Below, in pieces: positions 2,006 to 10,857 of a stretch of 64,000 nt of DNA. How positions within the stretch are numbered: the stretch's first letter is position 1; each line of letters opens with the position of its first letter. The stretch is taken from assembly GCA_051313645.2 (NCBI GenBank), contig JBNRSN020000003.1, positions 155,186,001-155,250,000 of the forward strand, given 5' to 3'. This DNA is from Centroscyllium fabricii (lineage: Eukaryota). The position numbers were made by a program, and so were the translations under genes. Below the pieces are notes generated by a model, which worked only from the letters and a program-made list of their open reading frames with translations, searched no databases and was not told the origin of the DNA.

Positions 2006-3777
2006 TAATTTGTGGCCTTTCCAGCACACTCCCACCAAAGTTACAACAGGCATGTGAAAACTTAATTTTAACTCCATACTTATTGAAGGATTATTGATGC
2101 AAACCCAGGTAGTAAAACAAACAATTCAAGCATGTATTTCAAACAATAACTGATGCTTACACCCACAGAGTACATAAAATGCTAATTAAACATGTCTGAA
2201 TTAAAATTTAACAAAATAATTCTTGTAAATTTATAACAAAAACAGGAAATGCAAAATGCACAGCAAGTTGTTCAGCATCTGAAAACAAAATTTAGGTACT
2301 GTTTCATATGTCGGCCTTCATCAAAACTGGCACAGTCAGACTGTAGAAACCTTTTCTGGACTGCCAAGGTCAAGTCAGATTATGCCCAAGAAAACAAAAA
2401 GGATGGAGAAAAACAGCTATATGGCAACAGTTCCTGGCCATTACATAGAGAACATACTCAACTAATTTACTCCAGGATGAGGGATCTGGAGTGTTATTGG
2501 CAGAAATATGTAGACTGTTAACTACTTGTCAACTATGTTTTCCTTCCTTGCCAATTTTCTTCCCATCGCTCCTCTTCTGATGGTGTTGGCTCCTTGTTTG
2601 GGTATGGTTTGCCCAAGTACCCAGTATTCAGATTGAGCCTTGACAGTGAGTATCAACAAGCTATTCAAGCATGGGGGCCATTATATGTGAGTCCAATTCT
2701 TTCCTCGCCAAATATCTACCCAAATGCAAGTCCACCACTGTCAAACAGTGATTAGGAATGAACATCCTGGCTAGGTTTTCCTTCTCTACCTTATGAAGTT
2801 ACCAGAAAAAGTGGTCAGCCTGAGGATTGGGATCTTTTTAGAAATCAGCAAAGGGGGACCAAGAAATTGATAAAGAAAGGGAAAATGGAATATGAGCACA
2901 AACTAGTGAAAAATATAAAAACGGATTGTAAAAGCTTCTGTAGGTATGTGATAAGGAAAAGACTGGCAAAGGTAAATGTAGATCCTTTACAGTCAGAGAT
3001 GGGAGAATTTATAATGGGGAATGAGGAAATGGCAGAGAAATTAAATAAATACTTTGTTTCTGTCTTCACAGAGGAAGACACAAAAAACCTCCCCAAAATA
3101 CGAGAAAACCAAGGGTGTGGCGATTATGAGGAACGTAAATAAATTATTATTAGTAAAAAACCAGTACTAGCAAAATTAATGGGACTAAAAGTCAATAAAT
3201 CCCAAGGAGCGGATGACCTACATCCTAGGGTTTTGAAAGAGGTGGCCATTGGGATGGTGGACGCATTGGTTGTCATCTTCCAAAATTCTAGCGATTCTGG
3301 AACGGTTCCTGCAGATTGGAGGGTGGCAAATGTAATCCCGCTATTTAAGAAAGGAGGGAGAGAGAAAACGGGGAACTACAGACCTGTTAGCTTCACATCA
3401 GTAGTTGGGAAAATACTGGAATCTATGAGAAAGGATGAAATAACTGGGCACTTAGAAACTAATAGTAAGATTGGGCAGAGTCAACGTGGATTTATGAAAG
3501 GGAAGTTCTGTTTGACAAACCTATTGGAGTTCTTTGAGGATGTAACTAGTGGAGTAGACAAAGGAGAACCGGTAGATATGGTGTATTTCGATTTTCAGAG
3601 GGCCTTCGATAAGAGGTCGGTGAACAAAATTAGGGCACATGGAATTGGGGATAATATAAAGGTTGAACACCGTTATAACAGCACGGGCAGGACTAGGCCC
3701 GGGCCGGTATAGCAAAAAAAACGGAAGAACAAAGCCGGCCAGTGCGCATGTGTGCACCATTCAAAATGGCATGCGCA

Positions 3778-4055
3778 TGTGGCGACACGCCCACCGGCAG
3801 CCACGAACCCGCGCTGGGAAGGCTGCAAAGCGGCCCCGCCCGTCGGAGGACGCACGGACTTCCCCGACGTGATGACGTCACCAGGTGGCCAGCCGGCAGT
3901 GACGTCCCCAGCGGCGGGACCTTTAAATACCTGAGCACCAGGTGGCTCAGTCTCTTTCTCCCTCTCTGGCCCTAGCTGTAACAAGTAGTTAATAAAAACT
4001 CTGCTTTTAACCCCTCTGTGTCCAGCGTGGTCCTTCAGCCTTGCAGGCCTCAACA
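3778..4055 (+). repeat. 5' LTR
   Basis: TGTGGCG...CAACA; TATA-like TTTAAATA ~3922, AATAAA 3991, CRE palindrome TGACGTCA 3873-3880. Confidence 0.95.
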
Positions 4056-4056
4056 C

Positions 4057-4068
4057 TGGTGACCCCGA
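4057..4068 (+). other. Primer-binding site, tRNA-Trp
   Basis: TGGTGACCCCGA equals the first 12 nt of the canonical tRNA-Trp PBS TGGTGACCCCGACGTGAT (as in avian alpharetroviruses). Confidence 0.9.
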
Positions 4069-4151
4069 TACCTGAGACGTTTCTCAGGTGAACAATGAAG
4101 CAGCCACTGCAGGACTGAGGGCCAGGCTGCCGCAGCCGAATCGCTACCACC

Positions 4152-7100
4152 ATGCCAGCAGCAAACGACTCAGCACGCCAAGGCAGACGGGGCCAAGTTT
4201 ACCTCCCGGTCCCAACCATACCACAATTCTGGGAGCTCCGTCCAGCGGCTTGGTTTCGCAACACCGAGAACACCTTCCGCATCCATGGCGTGCACGCAGA
4301 CGACCGCTACAGCCTGCTCTTCGCAGCCCTCGCACAGTCCACCATCGACAGAATGTGGGACACCATCGAGGAAGACACTTCTGCTGGCAGGTACGAATCG
4401 CTAAAGGCCGCGCTGCTCGCAAAATTTACCCCAACCATTTTCGAGCGCGATTGCCAGGTCATTAACCTCCCCGACCTGGGAGATGCAGACCCCACCGACT
4501 TGTGGGCCCAGCTCGAGGCGCTCAATCGCGACTCAGACACCCTTAAGCGCACCCTCTACCTCCTTAAGCTGCCGCCCTCCATCAGACCGACACTGACGGT
4601 CTTGGAGCACCTCTCAAACAGGCAGCTAGCTCAGGAGGCAGACAAGCTCATTAAGGCCGAGCGCACCCGCGCCACCATGCACCGCCACGCTGCCGCTCAA
4701 CAAGAGCAGCACCAACCACAACCCCGGCCCCAACTCAGAGCCGCGCGGACCCACAAAAAGCCACGCACCGCGGCAACCGGCTGGTGCTACTACCATACCA
4801 GGTTTGAGGCCAAAGCGCAGCGCTGCGTTCCGCCCTGCAACTTCAAACCCCAAACCTGCCCCAGCCCCACCATGTGCGTCGGCCGCTCCGGAGCGCTGCT
4901 CTTCGTTACAGACAGTGTCTCAGGCCTCCGTTTCCTCTGCGACACAGGCGCGCAGCACAGCATCGTGCCAGCCTCCCCCGCAGAATCCAAGCAGGGCACC
5001 CAAGGCCCACCACTCGAAGCCGCAAACGGCTCCGAGATACTCACGTTCGGTACCCGCCAGCTTACCATTAAACTAGCAGGCCACAGGTATACGTGGGACT
5101 TCATCACCGCGCAGGTTAACACGCCCCTACTCGGAGCCGACTTTCTGTGCGCCCACGGGCTCCTTGTCGATGTTACCCGGCGCCGCCTGGTCGACATCCA
5201 AATCATGTCGACCATTCCGTGCTCCACAGCCCCAGCACACCAGACCCACGCGGCAGCTCACTGCCGGGCCCGCAACTCCGACACGTACGCCACGCTGCTC
5301 GCCGAGTTCCCCACCCTAACCAACCCCACCTTCACAGCCCGCTCCGCCAAGCACGGCGTAGAGCACCACATCACCACCACAGGCCCCCCGGTCCACGCCC
5401 ACGCACGCAGGCTGGACCCGGCCAAGCTAGAGATCGCTCGAGCCGAGTTCCACATCATGGAACAGCTCGGCATCATCCGCCGCTCCAGCAGCCCCTGGGC
5501 CTCCCCCCTCCACATTGCCCCCAAACCCGATGGCGGCTGGCGCCCCTGCGGAGACTACCGCCGCCTCAACAACGCCACCACCCCGGATAGGTACCCAGTC
5601 CCCCACATCCAGGATTTTTCCGTGAGGCTAGCCGGCTGCACGGTCTTTTCAAAGATCGACCTGGTACGGGGCTACCACCAAGTTCCAGTGCACCCTGCGG
5701 ATGTCCCTAAGACAGCCGTCATCACCCCATTCGGCCTATTTGAATTTCTCCGGATGCCCTTCGGACTCAAAAACGCGGCCCAGGCTTTCCAGCGCCTCAT
5801 GGACTCAGTCCTCCGGGACCTCCAGTTCACATTCGTCTATCTCGACGACATCCTGGTGGCCAGCGCCTCCCCCCGGGAACACCTCATCCACCTCAGAACC
5901 CTTTTTAAACGCCTGGCCGACCACGGCCTCATATTAAGCCCCTCCAAGTGCCGATTCGGCCTCGAGGCTATTGACTTCCTCGGCCACCACATCTCCCACA
6001 CCGGGGCCATACCCCTGCCCTCCAAGGTGCAGGCGGTCCAGGAATTCCCCCGCCCGCACTCCATCAAGGGGCTGCAGGAATTCCTTGGAATGGTTAATTT
6101 TTACAACCGTTTCATCCCCGGCGCAGCCGCCCTCATGGCCCCCCTCTACCAGGCCACCCACGGGCAATCCAACAAGACCGCGGTCGAGTGGACGGCCGAA
6201 GCCGCCACCGCTTTCACCGCAACCAAAACGGCCCTTGCCAAAGCCACCCTCCTCAGCCACCCCAGGCCCAACGCCAGAGTAGCCCTCACCACCGACGCCT
6301 CCGACCACGCTGTCGGAGCAGTCTTCGAGCAGTGGTCGGGCGACTCATGGCAACCACTGGCCTTTTTCAGCCGCCGCCTCCGGCCCCCAGAGGTCAAGTA
6401 CAGCGCCTTCGATAGGGAGCTACTCGCTCTCTACCTCGCAGTGCGCCACTTCCGCTTCCTTTTAGAGGGCCGCCACTTTACAGCATTTGTGGACCACAAA
6501 CCATTAGTCTCCGCAATGGCTAAGCTCTCCGAACCCTGGTCGGCCAGGCAGCAGCGCCAGCTCGCGGCCGTGTCCGAGTTCACGACCGACATCCAGCACA
6601 TTGCCGGCCGCGACAACGTGGTCGCCGACTGCCTCTCACGACCCGCCATTCACAAGCCCAACCCCGACCACCCCGCAGGCCCCGCCATCAGCAGCGCAGG
6701 CACAACCGGCACCCAAACCGCCGACCACCCCCCAACCCCAGCCACCAACCGCGCCTGCGCACACTGCTGCACATTCCCAACCACCAACACTGTCCAGACC
6801 GCGGTCGACTACGTCAAAATGGCGGCCGACCAACTCAGCGATCCCGACCTCCTCGACCCCACCAACAAACTTCCCGGCCTACTCTTGGCCACCGTAGCAC
6901 ACGGACCCACAGCCACGGCGGTCCGCTGCGACGTCACCCTGCCCCAACCCAGGCCCGTGGTGCCCCCCGCGTGGAGGCAGCACATCTTCCAGACCCTCCA
7001 CGGCCTCTCCCACCCCGGCGTCCGCGCATCCACCAAGCTCATCTCTGCGCGATTCGTTTGGCGCGGCCTAAAACAAGATGTCCGCGCCTGGACCACCTCG

Positions 7101-8099
7101 TGCAATGCCTGCCAGCGAGCCAAGGTGCACAAACACATCAAAGCACCGCTCCAACCAATCGCCATCCCAGCCAGACGCTTCAGCCACGTGCACATCGACC
7201 TGGTTGGACCACTACCCCCATCACGTGGACACTCGTACCTCCTCACAATGGTCGACCGCACCACCCGCTGGCCTGAAGCGGTCCCCCTCAACACGACCAC
7301 CACCGCCGAACTGGCCAGGGCCTTCATCGCCACCTGGGTCGCCCGCTTCGGCGTCCCCAACGACATTACTTCAGACAGGGGCCCCCAATTCACTTCAACT
7401 CTATGGTCAACCATCGCTCACGACCTTGGGGTAACCCTGCACCGAACCACTGCCTACCACCCGCAAGCCAACGGCCTCTGCGAACGGTTCCACCGAACTT
7501 TTAAAACATCCCTGCGGGCCAGCCTCCAGGACGCAACCTGGACGGACCGCCTGCCCTGGGTAATGCTCGGCCTCCGCACAGCGGCCAAAGAAGATCTACA
7601 CGCCTCGGCAGCCGAACTCGTCTACGGCCAACCACTAACCGTACCAGGCGAGTTCGTCGCAGAAACAAACGAACCCTGGTCGGCCGAGCGCTGCCTCAGG
7701 GAATTTAACAACCAGGCAGCAGAATTCAAACCACTTCCGGTGGCCCGCCACGGTCAACCGGCGACACGCGTCCCCAACACCATTCAGGACGCCAAGTACG
7801 TGTTTGTCCGCCAGGACTCTCACAAAACACCGCTGCAGGCACCGTACGACGGGCCATTCAGAGTGCTTCGGGCGGGACCCAAGACTTTTGACATTCAAAT
7901 GGGCAACAGAACTGAGACCGTATCCATTGACCGGCTCAAACCAGCACACGTAATGGCGGGCGAGACAACAGTCCCCGCACAACCACCTAAACGCGGCCGC
8001 CCTACCGCACCAAAACCCGCCCACACTCCCACACAGACCAACAAGCAACACATCACACGTGCCGGCCGTACCATCAGGCCACCTAAGCGCCTCGCCTGA
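4152..8099 (+). CDS. Gag-Pol polyprotein (1315 aa)
   Basis: CHCC knuckle CYYHTRFEAKAQRCVPPC (CsRn1 clade hallmark), protease LCDTGA, RT YLDD, RNase H TTDAS...ADCLSR, integrase HHCC, HIDLVGP/SDRGPQF/NGLCER (DDE), GPF motif; order PR-RT-RH-IN. Confidence 0.97.
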   Translation: MPAANDSARQGRRGQVYLPVPTIPQFWELRPAAWFRNTENTFRIHGVHADDRYSLLFAALAQSTIDRMWDTIEEDTSAGRYESLKAALLAKFTPTIFERDCQVINLPDLGDADPTDLWAQLEALNRDSDTLKRTLYLLKLPPSIRPTLTVLEHLSNRQLAQEADKLIKAERTRATMHRHAAAQQEQHQPQPRPQLRAARTHKKPRTAATGWCYYHTRFEAKAQRCVPPCNFKPQTCPSPTMCVGRSGALLFVTDSVSGLRFLCDTGAQHSIVPASPAESKQGTQGPPLEAANGSEILTFGTRQLTIKLAGHRYTWDFITAQVNTPLLGADFLCAHGLLVDVTRRRLVDIQIMSTIPCSTAPAHQTHAAAHCRARNSDTYATLLAEFPTLTNPTFTARSAKHGVEHHITTTGPPVHAHARRLDPAKLEIARAEFHIMEQLGIIRRSSSPWASPLHIAPKPDGGWRPCGDYRRLNNATTPDRYPVPHIQDFSVRLAGCTVFSKIDLVRGYHQVPVHPADVPKTAVITPFGLFEFLRMPFGLKNAAQAFQRLMDSVLRDLQFTFVYLDDILVASASPREHLIHLRTLFKRLADHGLILSPSKCRFGLEAIDFLGHHISHTGAIPLPSKVQAVQEFPRPHSIKGLQEFLGMVNFYNRFIPGAAALMAPLYQATHGQSNKTAVEWTAEAATAFTATKTALAKATLLSHPRPNARVALTTDASDHAVGAVFEQWSGDSWQPLAFFSRRLRPPEVKYSAFDRELLALYLAVRHFRFLLEGRHFTAFVDHKPLVSAMAKLSEPWSARQQRQLAAVSEFTTDIQHIAGRDNVVADCLSRPAIHKPNPDHPAGPAISSAGTTGTQTADHPPTPATNRACAHCCTFPTTNTVQTAVDYVKMAADQLSDPDLLDPTNKLPGLLLATVAHGPTATAVRCDVTLPQPRPVVPPAWRQHIFQTLHGLSHPGVRASTKLISARFVWRGLKQDVRAWTTSCNACQRAKVHKHIKAPLQPIAIPARRFSHVHIDLVGPLPPSRGHSYLLTMVDRTTRWPEAVPLNTTTTAELARAFIATWVARFGVPNDITSDRGPQFTSTLWSTIAHDLGVTLHRTTAYHPQANGLCERFHRTFKTSLRASLQDATWTDRLPWVMLGLRTAAKEDLHASAAELVYGQPLTVPGEFVAETNEPWSAERCLREFNNQAAEFKPLPVARHGQPATRVPNTIQDAKYVFVRQDSHKTPLQAPYDGPFRVLRAGPKTFDIQMGNRTETVSIDRLKPAHVMAGETTVPAQPPKRGRPTAPKPAHTPTQTNKQHITRAGRTIRPPKRLA

Positions 8100-8307
8100 G
8101 GCGACACGGGCAGAGCATTGACGGCCCGCCACAACACCATCTTTCGAACCACGGAACAGCACACAACACCTGCCGGCCACAACACCAGGCCATTGCGGCA
8201 AACTGTCGGACATTCTGTGTGTAATCGAAATGTGTGTCTGCTCTCTTTTTTGTCTCCCTCTCCTCTAGGAAACTACACTTCCCCTCGCGGATTCTGGGGG
8301 GGAGCTG

Positions 8308-8585
8308 TGTGGCGACACGCCCACCGGCAGCCACGAACCCGCGCTGGGAAGGCTGCAAAGCGGCCCCGCCCGTCGGAGGACGCACGGACTTCCCCGACGT
8401 GATGACGTCACCAGGTGGCCAGCCGGCAGTGACGTCCCCAGCGGCGGGACCTTTAAATACCTGAGCACCAGGTGGCTCAGTCTCTTTCTCCCTCTCTGGC
8501 CCTATCTGTAACAAGTAGTTAATAAAAACTCTGCTTTTAACCCCTCTGTGTCCAGCGTGGTCCTTCAGCCTTGCAGGCCTCAACA
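8308..8585 (+). repeat. 3' LTR
   Basis: Offset 4530 from the 5' LTR; only difference seen is G3975 vs T8505. Confidence 0.95.
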
Positions 8586-10857
8586 CGCATAACATTGGAA
8601 ATGGCCGCCGCAAAGTGTTGACTGATCTGTGCATGCGCCGCCGAATGGCGAGCGCATGCGCAGATCATTCAAAAATGGCCACCAGAAGTTTTGAATGGTC
8701 TGCGCATGCGCTCACCGTTCAGCGGCGCATGCGCAGATCATTCAAAACTTCCGGTGGCCATTGTGAATGATCTGCGCATGCGCTCGCCGTTCGGCGGCGC
8801 ATGCACAGATCATTCGCCGAAGCATCGATCTCGGTGGCCATTTTGCGCATGCGCAGGGCAGTCGGGGCAATTTATGCTGGCCAACTGAAGTTTCCGCCTT
8901 CCGGTTACTGGATAAACGGTGTTCAACCTGTATTAGCATGGATTGAGAATTGGTTAGCAGACAGAAAACAAAGAGTAGGGATAAGCAAGTCTTTTTCAGG
9001 ATGGCAGGCTGTGCTTAGTGGGTTACCGCAAGGATCAGTGCTTAGGCCCCAGCTATTCACAATCTATATCAATGATTTGGATGAGGGGACTAAATGTAAC
9101 ATTTCCAAATTTGCTGATGATACAAAGCAAGGTGGCAGTGTCAGTTGTGAAGAGGATGTGAAAAGGCTTCAAGGGATCTCGACAGGCTCAGTGAGTGGGC
9201 GAGAACATGGCAGATGGATTATAATGTGGATAAATGTGAAGTTATCCACTTTGGTAGAAAAAACAGAAAGGCAGAGTATTTCCTAAATGGTGAAAGATTG
9301 GGGAATGCAGATGCTCAAAGGGACCTGGGTGTTCTTATACATGAGTCACTGAAAGTGAATGTGCAGGTGCAGAAAGCCATTAGGAAGGCAAATGTTATGC
9401 TGGCCTTCATTACAAGAGGATTTGAGTACAGGAGTAAAGAAGTCTTACTCCAATTATATAGGGCCTTGGTGAGACCACACCTGGAGTACTGTGTACAACT
9501 TTGGTCTCCTTACCGAAGGAAGGATATACTTGCCATAGAGGGAGTGCAACGAAAGTTCACGAGATTGAATCCTGAGATGGCATGACTGTCGTATGAGAAG
9601 AGATTGAGTAAACTAGGCCTGTATTCTCTTGAATTCAGAAGAATGAGAGGGGATCTCATTGAAGCATACAAAATTATTACAGGGCTTGATAGGGTGGATG
9701 CTGGGAGAATGTTTCCCTTGGCTGGGGAGTCTAGAACCAGGGACCACAGCCTCAGGATAAAGGGTAGGCCTTTCAGGACTGAGATGAGAAGACATTTCTT
9801 CAGAAGGTGGTGAATCTTTGGAATTCTCTAACCCAGAGGGCTGTGGAGGCCCAGTCATTGGGTATATTCAAAACAGTAGTCGATAGATTTCTGACTAGTA
9901 AGGGCTTCAAGGGATATGGCGATAGGGCCGGGGAATGGAGTTGAGGCAGAAGATCAGCCATGATCTCATTGAATGCGGAGCAGGCTCGAACGGCCGAATG
10001 GCCGACTCCTGCTCCTATTTCTGATGTTCATAAGTGTATTGAGGTTAATTGTAGCAGCTCCGCCAGAGAGCGACTAATTTAACACAAACTCAGGACCCAA
10101 TTTGGGACCTTTGTGATTTGCATGGCTCAGCTACTCACTGGATGGGCTCGCTGAGCTATTGGGGAGTGGCAAGTACTCTTTGATGTTATTTTGCTTTTGG
10201 ATTTTGCTATGTTAGATATTGTAAAACAGGGCGTAGACAGCGACAGTATGAAAAAGATGTCTCACAAAACCAAACCTGTTGATTTCTGACAGCATTAAAA
10301 GCGACAAAAAATTATGCTCGATTGCAAATGGTTAATTATATAACTTACACATGGCCAAATGCCTGCTCCTGCAAGTTTGGTTCTACATAAGATGGTTACC
10401 ATTACATTGGAACTTTTACATGGACATAAGGGCTGGCTCCCCTCACTGTGACCCCAGCCATCCCCAAAACCCTTTTTCAACTCCTACCACACTCTGGTAT
10501 CCCTTTCCCAATACTCCCAATCACCGCAATGGCCCCTTATATAGTTCCATCACTCCACAACTACCGTCCTAGTTATGCATCCTCCAGGGCTCACAAACCC
10601 CCATAATTCCTGTTCTCAATCCCCAGACCACCTCGCCCTATTCCTGCTGACCCACACAGCCCCCCAACAGTACTATATGCAGGTCTTACAATTTTTCTCC
10701 AACCTACCTATCTGGAACATCTGCCCTACTTTCTTCCCAATATTGGCTTTACAAAATTGCTAAATAAACTTTTAATCTTAATCAAGGCCACTGATTTACA
10801 GTTTCCATGCAAATATGCATAATCATAGAATTTGAGCCCAAAATTATCCCTAAAACT

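Follow-up and report, generated by a model that had tools for sequence, protein, structure and literature searches.

Introduction

Split primer sites were elucidated in the yeast elements Ty1 and Ty3, and in the literature consulted, mostly papers outside subscription and in part excerpts, bipartite or extended primer binding sites (PBSs) were found only for Ty1, Ty3 and retroviruses. According to the accessible parts of the reports, Ty3 of S. cerevisiae (Ty3/gypsy) has a short 5′ PBS and a tRNA complement in U3 (PMC5371799, PMC4974528, PMC11381356), more precisely a PBS of 8 nt together with two 3′ segments, of 12 and 11 bp, that serve the T and D arms. Its PBS is not inherited from the tRNA, and tRNA-extended plus-strand strong-stop DNA is a dead end (PMC5371799). 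In Ty1, the boxes lie 3′ of a 10-nt PBS (PMC4974528, PMC3592414); as far as these excerpts describe it, Ty1 is a copia element that uses initiator tRNA-Met, and its experimentally tested boxes lie in GAG and complement the T-psi-C arm at a spacing of up to 28 nt. The primer activation signal of HIV-1, as outlined in the available text, is likewise proposed to pair with the T-psi-C arm outside the PBS but is located upstream of a full 18-nt PBS, and plus-strand synthesis stops at m1A58 (PMC13191261).

The element described here resembles those of the CsRn1 clade (CsRn1, PwRn1 and AgCR), for which the accessible descriptions give a tRNA-Trp PBS, a 4-bp target-site duplication (TSD), a CX2HX9CX3C motif, a fused ORF and LTRs starting with TGTGGYG (PMC2582038, PMC3601003). 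No second tRNA contact or tRNA-tailed mini-element was found in the available CsRn1 literature (again mostly papers outside subscription), of which the PBS alignment in Additional file 1 of PMC2582038 may show the leader.

Like Ty3, our element combines a short 5′ PBS with a T-arm complement in U3, and its tRNA-extended plus strands and PBS appear to behave in the same way. In contrast to Ty3, its PBS measures 12 nt, and its single U3 box overlaps the PBS by 6 nt of tRNA complement, is predicted to be buried and occurs in this one host lineage, without conservation across related families. The Ty1-like feature of a T-arm complement 3′ of a short PBS, here at a spacing of 4–32 nt, recurred across families, while a D-arm box was not found. 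This complement differs from that of Ty1 in belonging to a gypsy clade primed by tRNA-Trp, in its position within the 5′ leader, often preceded by a hairpin, in its length of 5–11 nt and in being a candidate from sequence; unlike the HIV-1 signal, it lies downstream of a 10–15-nt PBS. A recurring T-arm box would extend split priming to an animal gypsy clade, would explain why CsRn1 PBSs measure only 10–15 nt, and would provide a precise 5–11-nt target. Our preferred reading, to which we assign a probability of roughly 55%, is that the U3 box, which matches tRNA-Trp exactly in one lineage only, serves as a landing target and was likely made exact by tRNA-templated overwriting, with the T-arm complement in the leader as the likely second contact of the clade.

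An intact CsRn1-like element

The window (the whole 64,000-nt stretch of Centroscyllium fabricii DNA that was analysed) contains, at positions 3778–8585, an intact, young Ty3/gypsy element with one gag-pol ORF. Its features are as follows:

3774..3777, + strand, left TSD CGCA, from sequence
3778..4055, + strand, 5′ LTR of 278 bp (TG...CA), with one difference from the 3′ LTR
3922..3929, + strand, TATA-like TTTAAATA, from sequence
3991..3996, + strand, poly(A) signal AATAAA, from sequence
4057..4068, + strand, 12-nt PBS for tRNA-Trp (acceptor strand plus one base), complement of host tRNA-Trp
4069..4090, + strand, predicted hairpin directly 3′ of the PBS, from folding and leader variants
4152..8099, + strand, single gag-pol ORF encoding DUF7041, RT, RNase H and integrase, 1315 aa when counted from the first ATG
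4785 (residue 212 of the gag-pol ORF), + strand, Gag CX2HX9CX3C motif, from the ORF translation
8292..8307, + strand, polypurine tract region, from sequence
8308..8585, + strand, 3′ LTR, from LTR comparison
8586..8589, + strand, right TSD CGCA, from sequence

Three features of the CsRn1 clade were found, namely the tRNA-Trp PBS, the 4-bp TSD (CGCA) and the Gag CX2HX9CX3C motif, and on these the element can be classed as CsRn1-like, in line with the original prediction; the RT tree comprised unnamed relatives only. The PBS at 4057–4068 indeed matches nt 1–12 of the tRNA-Trp complement (counted from the tRNA 3′ end) and then diverges. Host tRNA-Trp(CCA) genes were identified by ARAGORN in two of 15 loci of the host's own genome (L028, L036), and their 3′ complement matches the PBS exactly over nt 4–12, which agrees with tRNA-Trp as the primer. 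Elsewhere in the genome we noted a large cluster of tRNA-Trp-like genes (G000:C823:37-40 Mb) and, on C3 next to tRNA genes for Val and Lys, repeated pseudogenes of the 3′ half of tRNA-Trp (L034, L035, L037, L038).

Inverted repeats at 3660–3674 and 8915–8929 flank the gypsy element. We take these to be the ends of a small TIR element that encloses it and that itself interrupts what is presumably a CR1-like RT reading frame.

The U3 box matches tRNA-Trp and is predicted to be buried

The part of U3 under study comprises:

3841..3850, + strand, U3 arm, predicted by folding to be the partner of box nt 7–14, covarying with the box across subfamilies
3862..3873, + strand, U3 box CCCCGACGTGAT in the 5′ LTR, exact complement of tRNA-Trp nt 59–70 (nt 7–18 from the 3′ end)
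3873..3880, + strand, CRE-type palindrome TGACGTCA, having one base (the last T of the box) in common with the box
8392..8403, + strand, U3 box in the 3′ LTR with the same letters, the copy expected in genomic RNA

Both LTRs thus carry the exact nt 7–18 complement that had been reported for them (3862–3873 and 8392–8403): at up to one mismatch, CCCCGACGTGAT had two matches in the window, both in LTRs, versus 0.10 expected, and none of 100 shuffles reached two. Specificity for tRNA-Trp and the sense strand was evident from duplex energies: the duplex of tRNA-Trp nt 59–70 on the U3 of the window reached –23.3 kcal/mol (z –7.3 versus 60 dinucleotide shuffles), and the duplex energies of host Val, Leu and Lys segments and of the antisense strand stayed at |z| under 2. 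Since the host tRNA-Trp genes match box nt 7–18 exactly, the proposed contact is not refuted by a differing host tRNA. The assignment of the box to U3 is reasonable because it lies upstream of both TATA-like TTTAAATA and AATAAA. Given the 6-nt overlap between box and PBS, the box adds a net nt 13–18, worth –5.6 kcal/mol.

The two cautions that accompanied the original prediction, a local pairing partner and an adjoining palindrome, both stand. The last T of the box also belongs to TGACGTCA, which we presume to be a CRE (just as ACTTCCGG, mentioned below, is presumed to be ETS-like). Moreover, box nt 7–14 are predicted to pair with 3841–3850, with a probability of being unpaired of at most 0.02. 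Across subfamilies, arm GCCGG goes with box CCGGC and arm GTCGG with box CCGAC; arm and box thus covary, so that a G to A change in the box was followed by restoration of the local hairpin. In the predicted fold the U3 box lies hidden within a hairpin, and a cofold of the 3′ RNA of the window with tRNA-Trp left it unused, in a prediction that ignores NC and tRNA modifications. Whole-region folding did not stand out, with z-scores of –1.3 and –1.0.

The box is absent from relatives in other hosts

A metagenome scan yielded 79 loci. A usable PBS was missing from 27; in the other 52 the PBS was of the Trp type, and these represent 43 families (nine loci were redundant). The Gag CX2HX9CX3C (CHCC) motif was present in 39 of these 43, and no relatives were found in viral contigs. 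LTRs were obtained from 30 families (24 full and 6 partial), those of the other 13 being unusable, one mis-called. None of the 30 non-host LTRs had 8 or more exact nt of nt 7–18 (the longest exact run was 7 nt), and in only one did the U3 match reach p ≤ 0.05. TGATT (nt 15–19) occurred in 15 of the 30, above the shuffle maximum of 13. Because it is absent from all 30 non-host LTRs, the U3 box is not a feature of the clade. In some relatives from other hosts (L189, L200, L180, L236) the PBS measures 18–19 nt, so that PBS length is labile in the clade.

The proposal that CsRn1-clade elements keep the missing half of their PBS in U3 was thus not supported, the box being missing from 30/30 non-host LTRs and from the TGTAGC-type host lineages. 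The associated idea of a tRNA that bridges both RNA ends is not supported for the whole clade either, while a U3 contact limited to the host lineage is possible, as 12 pairable positions are kept there. Such a lineage-limited, Ty3-like bridge, in which the U3 box would be a selected 3′ tRNA contact in the TGTGGC-type lineage of the host, seems rather unlikely to us. It would presumably have the tRNA, with similarly modest odds, on the PBS (nt 1–12), the U3 box (nt 13–18, or nt 7–18 by branch migration) and the leader (nt 20–25) at once, and would, if one accepts this doubtful layout, open both T-stem strands and tie the RNA ends together. Contigs from three other organisms agree with it in being identical over 3778–3890, with no variant listed inside the box. 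Against it, besides the absence just described, stand the predicted burial of the box, with an arm re-matched after the G to A change, and a net gain of only 6 bp, compared with the 8-bp PBS and the 3′ segments of 11 and 12 bp in the available account of Ty3 (PMC11381356).

The exact box is derived within one host lineage

The host genome contains about 72,000 short-PBS sites of the kind seen in the window (a count that includes some double counts). Sixty host loci from two PBS searches fell into several LTR lineages, and a subfamily tree was built from 50 rows (6 of 56 were left out because of a short or broken internal region). In this tree, the exact box marks one derived clade with 100/100 support, nested in TTCCGG subfamilies. 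The enclosing subfamilies read TTCCGGCGTGAT, in which the same 12 tRNA bases are pairable using three G.U pairs, and the exact box derives from a G.U-compatible, CRE-adjacent repeat unit. Along the subfamily ladder all 12 pairable positions are kept and all three changes run from G.U to Watson-Crick, a pattern that selection for RNA pairing also predicts. A sister group reads GCCGRCGYGAT inside a palindrome; in a sister subfamily (L048, L064, L069), a C at nt 15 breaks the tRNA pairing. A distant host lineage keeps CGTGATGACGTCA or CCCGACGTG, and nothing comparable to the U3 box was seen in the LTRs of the TGTAGC-type host lineages. U3 matches at p ≤ 0.05 were found in four of 12 host lineages, one of them distant and with 9 exact nt. 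PBS wobble and box state showed no compensation, exact and wobble boxes occurring with both PBS forms. In the subclade of the window element (the window with L080, L092, L097 and L040), the PBS has returned from a wobble form to an exact tRNA match, possibly through occasional tRNA templating.

A CCCCGGCGTGAT subfamily (CCCCGG) stands between the wobble and exact states, with 12 loci inspected of 545 matches. Its monophyly, implying conversion followed by reversion, was not rejected (p-AU 0.148); if CCCCGGCGTGAT is ancestral, the 5′ positions changed first, opposite to the prediction from a single template switch. A single overwrite without intermediates, suggested by bimodality among the first 100 of 39,343 matches, was dropped once the CCCCGG subfamily had been found. 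TTCCGA/TCCCGA (242 matches) was rejected as an intermediate subfamily, as it resembled scattered single mutations among the first 100 listed. In one sub-lineage a second box, reaching nt 3–18, lies at the junction of a 41-bp duplication, where reading of the sequence gives 5 nt of microhomology for an exact 18-nt tRNA copy as donor versus 1 nt for plain slippage.

For the tRNA bridge speak the 12 pairable positions kept on the ladder, with only G.U to Watson-Crick changes, the persistence of the box unit while other U3 repeat units drift, and the extra boxes that arise in sub-lineages; the C at nt 15 of the sister subfamily and a conserved part that is inseparable from the adjoining CRE-type motif speak against it. 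The same comparison bears on a quite improbable third explanation, namely that the box amounts to no more than a promoter repeat unit (CGTGATGACGTCA) and an RNA hairpin, the exact tRNA match having arisen by ordinary transitions and the landings described below being a side effect. Consistent with this, ETS-like ACTTCCGG (a presumed motif name) precedes CGTGATGACGTCA in older subfamilies, related LTRs carry 2–4 tandem or inverted copies of the unit, including as a palindrome, and one distant lineage keeps CGTGATGACGTCA without the CCCCGA part. In addition, U3 changes fast along the ladder, and the hairpin gained a base pair with the first change. It is less readily reconciled with three specific changes that all run towards the tRNA while the other nine positions are fixed, with a duplication junction that is in register and gives nt 3–18, or with a z of –7.3 that is specific to Trp and the sense strand.

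A T-arm complement recurs in the leader

In the window, the leader downstream of the PBS contains a further candidate contact:

4089..4105, + strand, candidate leader box, TGAACA (nt 20–25 of the tRNA-Trp complement) and GCAGCC (nt 27–32), from sequence, duplex and cofold

This segment (p 0.02) is predicted to pair with the T-loop, the 5′ T-stem strand and the variable region of tRNA-Trp, and when the 5′ RNA of the window was cofolded with tRNA-Trp, the PBS and 4090–4094 paired unprompted. GAACA was first spotted by eye in leaders and tested statistically afterwards, using the 45 nt after the PBS match in 51 families (the 43 metagenome families and 8 host representatives), with the tRNA-Trp of other hosts approximated by that of this host. 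It was present in 21 of the 51, versus 4.7 expected, and ranked first of 1024 5-mers; the enriched tRNA 5-mers make up one run, nt 20–32 of the complement. Among the 43 unalignable metagenome families, 20 had GAACA (about 4 expected), often within a longer match, and 16 had it without a following ATG, compared with maxima of 11 (all) and 10 (no ATG) in 1000 shuffles. The other 23 metagenome families lacked it, and there was no enrichment among the host representatives (1/8).

No excess of GAACA was seen on the antisense strand, in the next 45 nt or in U5, and neither GAACC nor Val, Leu and Lys segments were enriched in leaders. Correspondingly, the leader duplex z was –5.3 for sense Trp, versus –1.1 for Val, –0.4 for Leu, +1.0 for Lys and +2.4 for antisense. 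On the RT tree GAACA has a scattered distribution, with 12 changes of which at least 6 are forced, and the start of the leader match varies from nt 16 to nt 44, with a spacing from the PBS of 4–32 nt. Nt 31–70 of the complement, as in a D-arm box 3′ of the PBS, was not enriched in the first 45 nt. Leaders were individually significant in 12 of 43 metagenome families and in 5 of 23 host leaders. Four of these five belong to host lineages without the U3 box; this one contrast hints at compensation, and the longer leader matches in box-less lineages would also suit a tRNA bridge.

Together, this suggests that the leader complement is a Ty1-like extended PBS that pairs with the T-arm of tRNA-Trp, and we hold it to be a probable true tRNA contact, whichever reading of the U3 box applies. 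The original observation in U3 is real, and its interpretation is redirected to the leader: a second tRNA contact for the short PBS probably exists, as had been proposed, with the clade-wide complementarity in the 5′ leader and not in U3.

A hairpin directly 3′ of the PBS also recurs and may act as a signal for packaging or for limiting the PBS. Folding was more favourable than in shuffles for 35 of 51 leaders, in 14 of them by over 3 kcal/mol, and both sides of the stem at 4069–4090 vary among host subfamilies. CGCTA at the end of U5 in 14 of 51 families is the complement of D-arm bases of tRNA-Trp, but is probably an integrase att motif only.

Integrated tRNA copies and landing on the box

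Besides the roughly 72,000 short-PBS sites, the host genome contains 535 exact 18-nt tRNA copies (PBS18). From the first 100 of the 535 copies as listed, we sampled 81 junctions at 80 loci. Seventy of them ended exactly at nt 18 and 10 continued further into the tRNA; in five of the latter the letter at nt 19, which corresponds to m1A58, was altered. A plus-strand stop at m1A58 is described in the accessible part of PMC13191261, and the nt-18 ends fit plus-strand synthesis on mature tRNA that stops there. The copy thus stops at nt 18, in contrast to nt 12 in the available description of Ty3. For both Ty1 and Ty3, the excerpts at hand describe tRNA-tailed strands as dead ends and a PBS that is not inherited from the tRNA (PMC5371799; PMC7472051); the wobble PBS that is stable in many host subfamilies is consistent with such non-inheritance. 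The 535 copies represent a genomic record of m1A58 plus-strand stopping and PBS non-inheritance in an animal retrotransposon.

Past the tRNA tail the sequence jumps, and in 9 of 81 junctions it resumes in antisense orientation at a microhomology, the integrase D-I-T-S codons. All nine junctions with an exact box upstream continue from the box, versus none of the other 72, although four of the nine come from one contig and probably share one origin. The box is thus demonstrated to act at the DNA level, as a target for tRNA-copied DNA ends. The products of such landing are LTR-PBS18-partial-LTR mini-insertions, some holding two or three rounds, and genome-wide 40 of the 535 PBS18 copies continue into a CRE-type unit. 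Among 17 inspected mini-insertions, 12 had matching 4-bp TSDs, two were mismatched (at chosen ends) and three gave no TSD call. One locus (L255) consists of a wobble-box LTR, then PBS18, then a partial LTR, and is the donor structure that overwriting needs, with tRNA letters in a U3 context. Since PBS18 copies show a route for tRNA sequence into the LTR, a U3 sequence that matches a tRNA does not have to be a primer site.

In our preferred reading of the box as a landing target, tRNA-Trp primes at the 12-nt PBS, and plus-strand synthesis copies the mature tRNA to nt 18, sometimes beyond it and with a changed letter at nt 19, as in the sampled junctions. By analogy with Ty1 and Ty3, the tailed plus strand would normally lead nowhere, its last 6 nt being mismatched to the PBS, and the short PBS would therefore be inherited. 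Occasionally the tail anneals at a microhomology and integrates, in exact-box LTRs continuing from the box, as the nine landings illustrate. Recombination with mini-elements may then have written tRNA letters into an ancestral TTCCGGCGTGAT-GACGTCA unit, after which the neighbouring hairpin arm presumably changed and pairing was restored. At initiation, the enrichment described above would have the acceptor strand pair with the PBS, and the T-loop and 5′ T-stem strand with GAACA(CGCAG) 4–32 nt further on, often behind a hairpin, like the Ty1 boxes. GAACA would pair with U52–C56, extending in some families to nt 45–56.

It is a rather long shot that both contacts act together, in a split primer site that opens the T-arm of tRNA-Trp through a clade-wide Ty1-like leader box and a Ty3-like U3 box, the latter added in this vertebrate lineage and written by the element's own tRNA-tailed plus-strand DNA. 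If so, the genome would record, copy by copy, the birth of a 5′–3′ bipartite PBS.

Some PBS18 copies form groups with an identical junction (L134, L135, L137, L142 and L145; L104, L113, L147 and L148), which would reflect repeated landing at a single microhomology or, alternatively, subfamilies that replicate with an inherited 18-nt PBS. Finally, large tandem segmental duplications with a period of about 45–50 kb multiply one insertion many times in this genome (G000:C1:111.7-112.1 Mb and 226.6-227.1 Mb).
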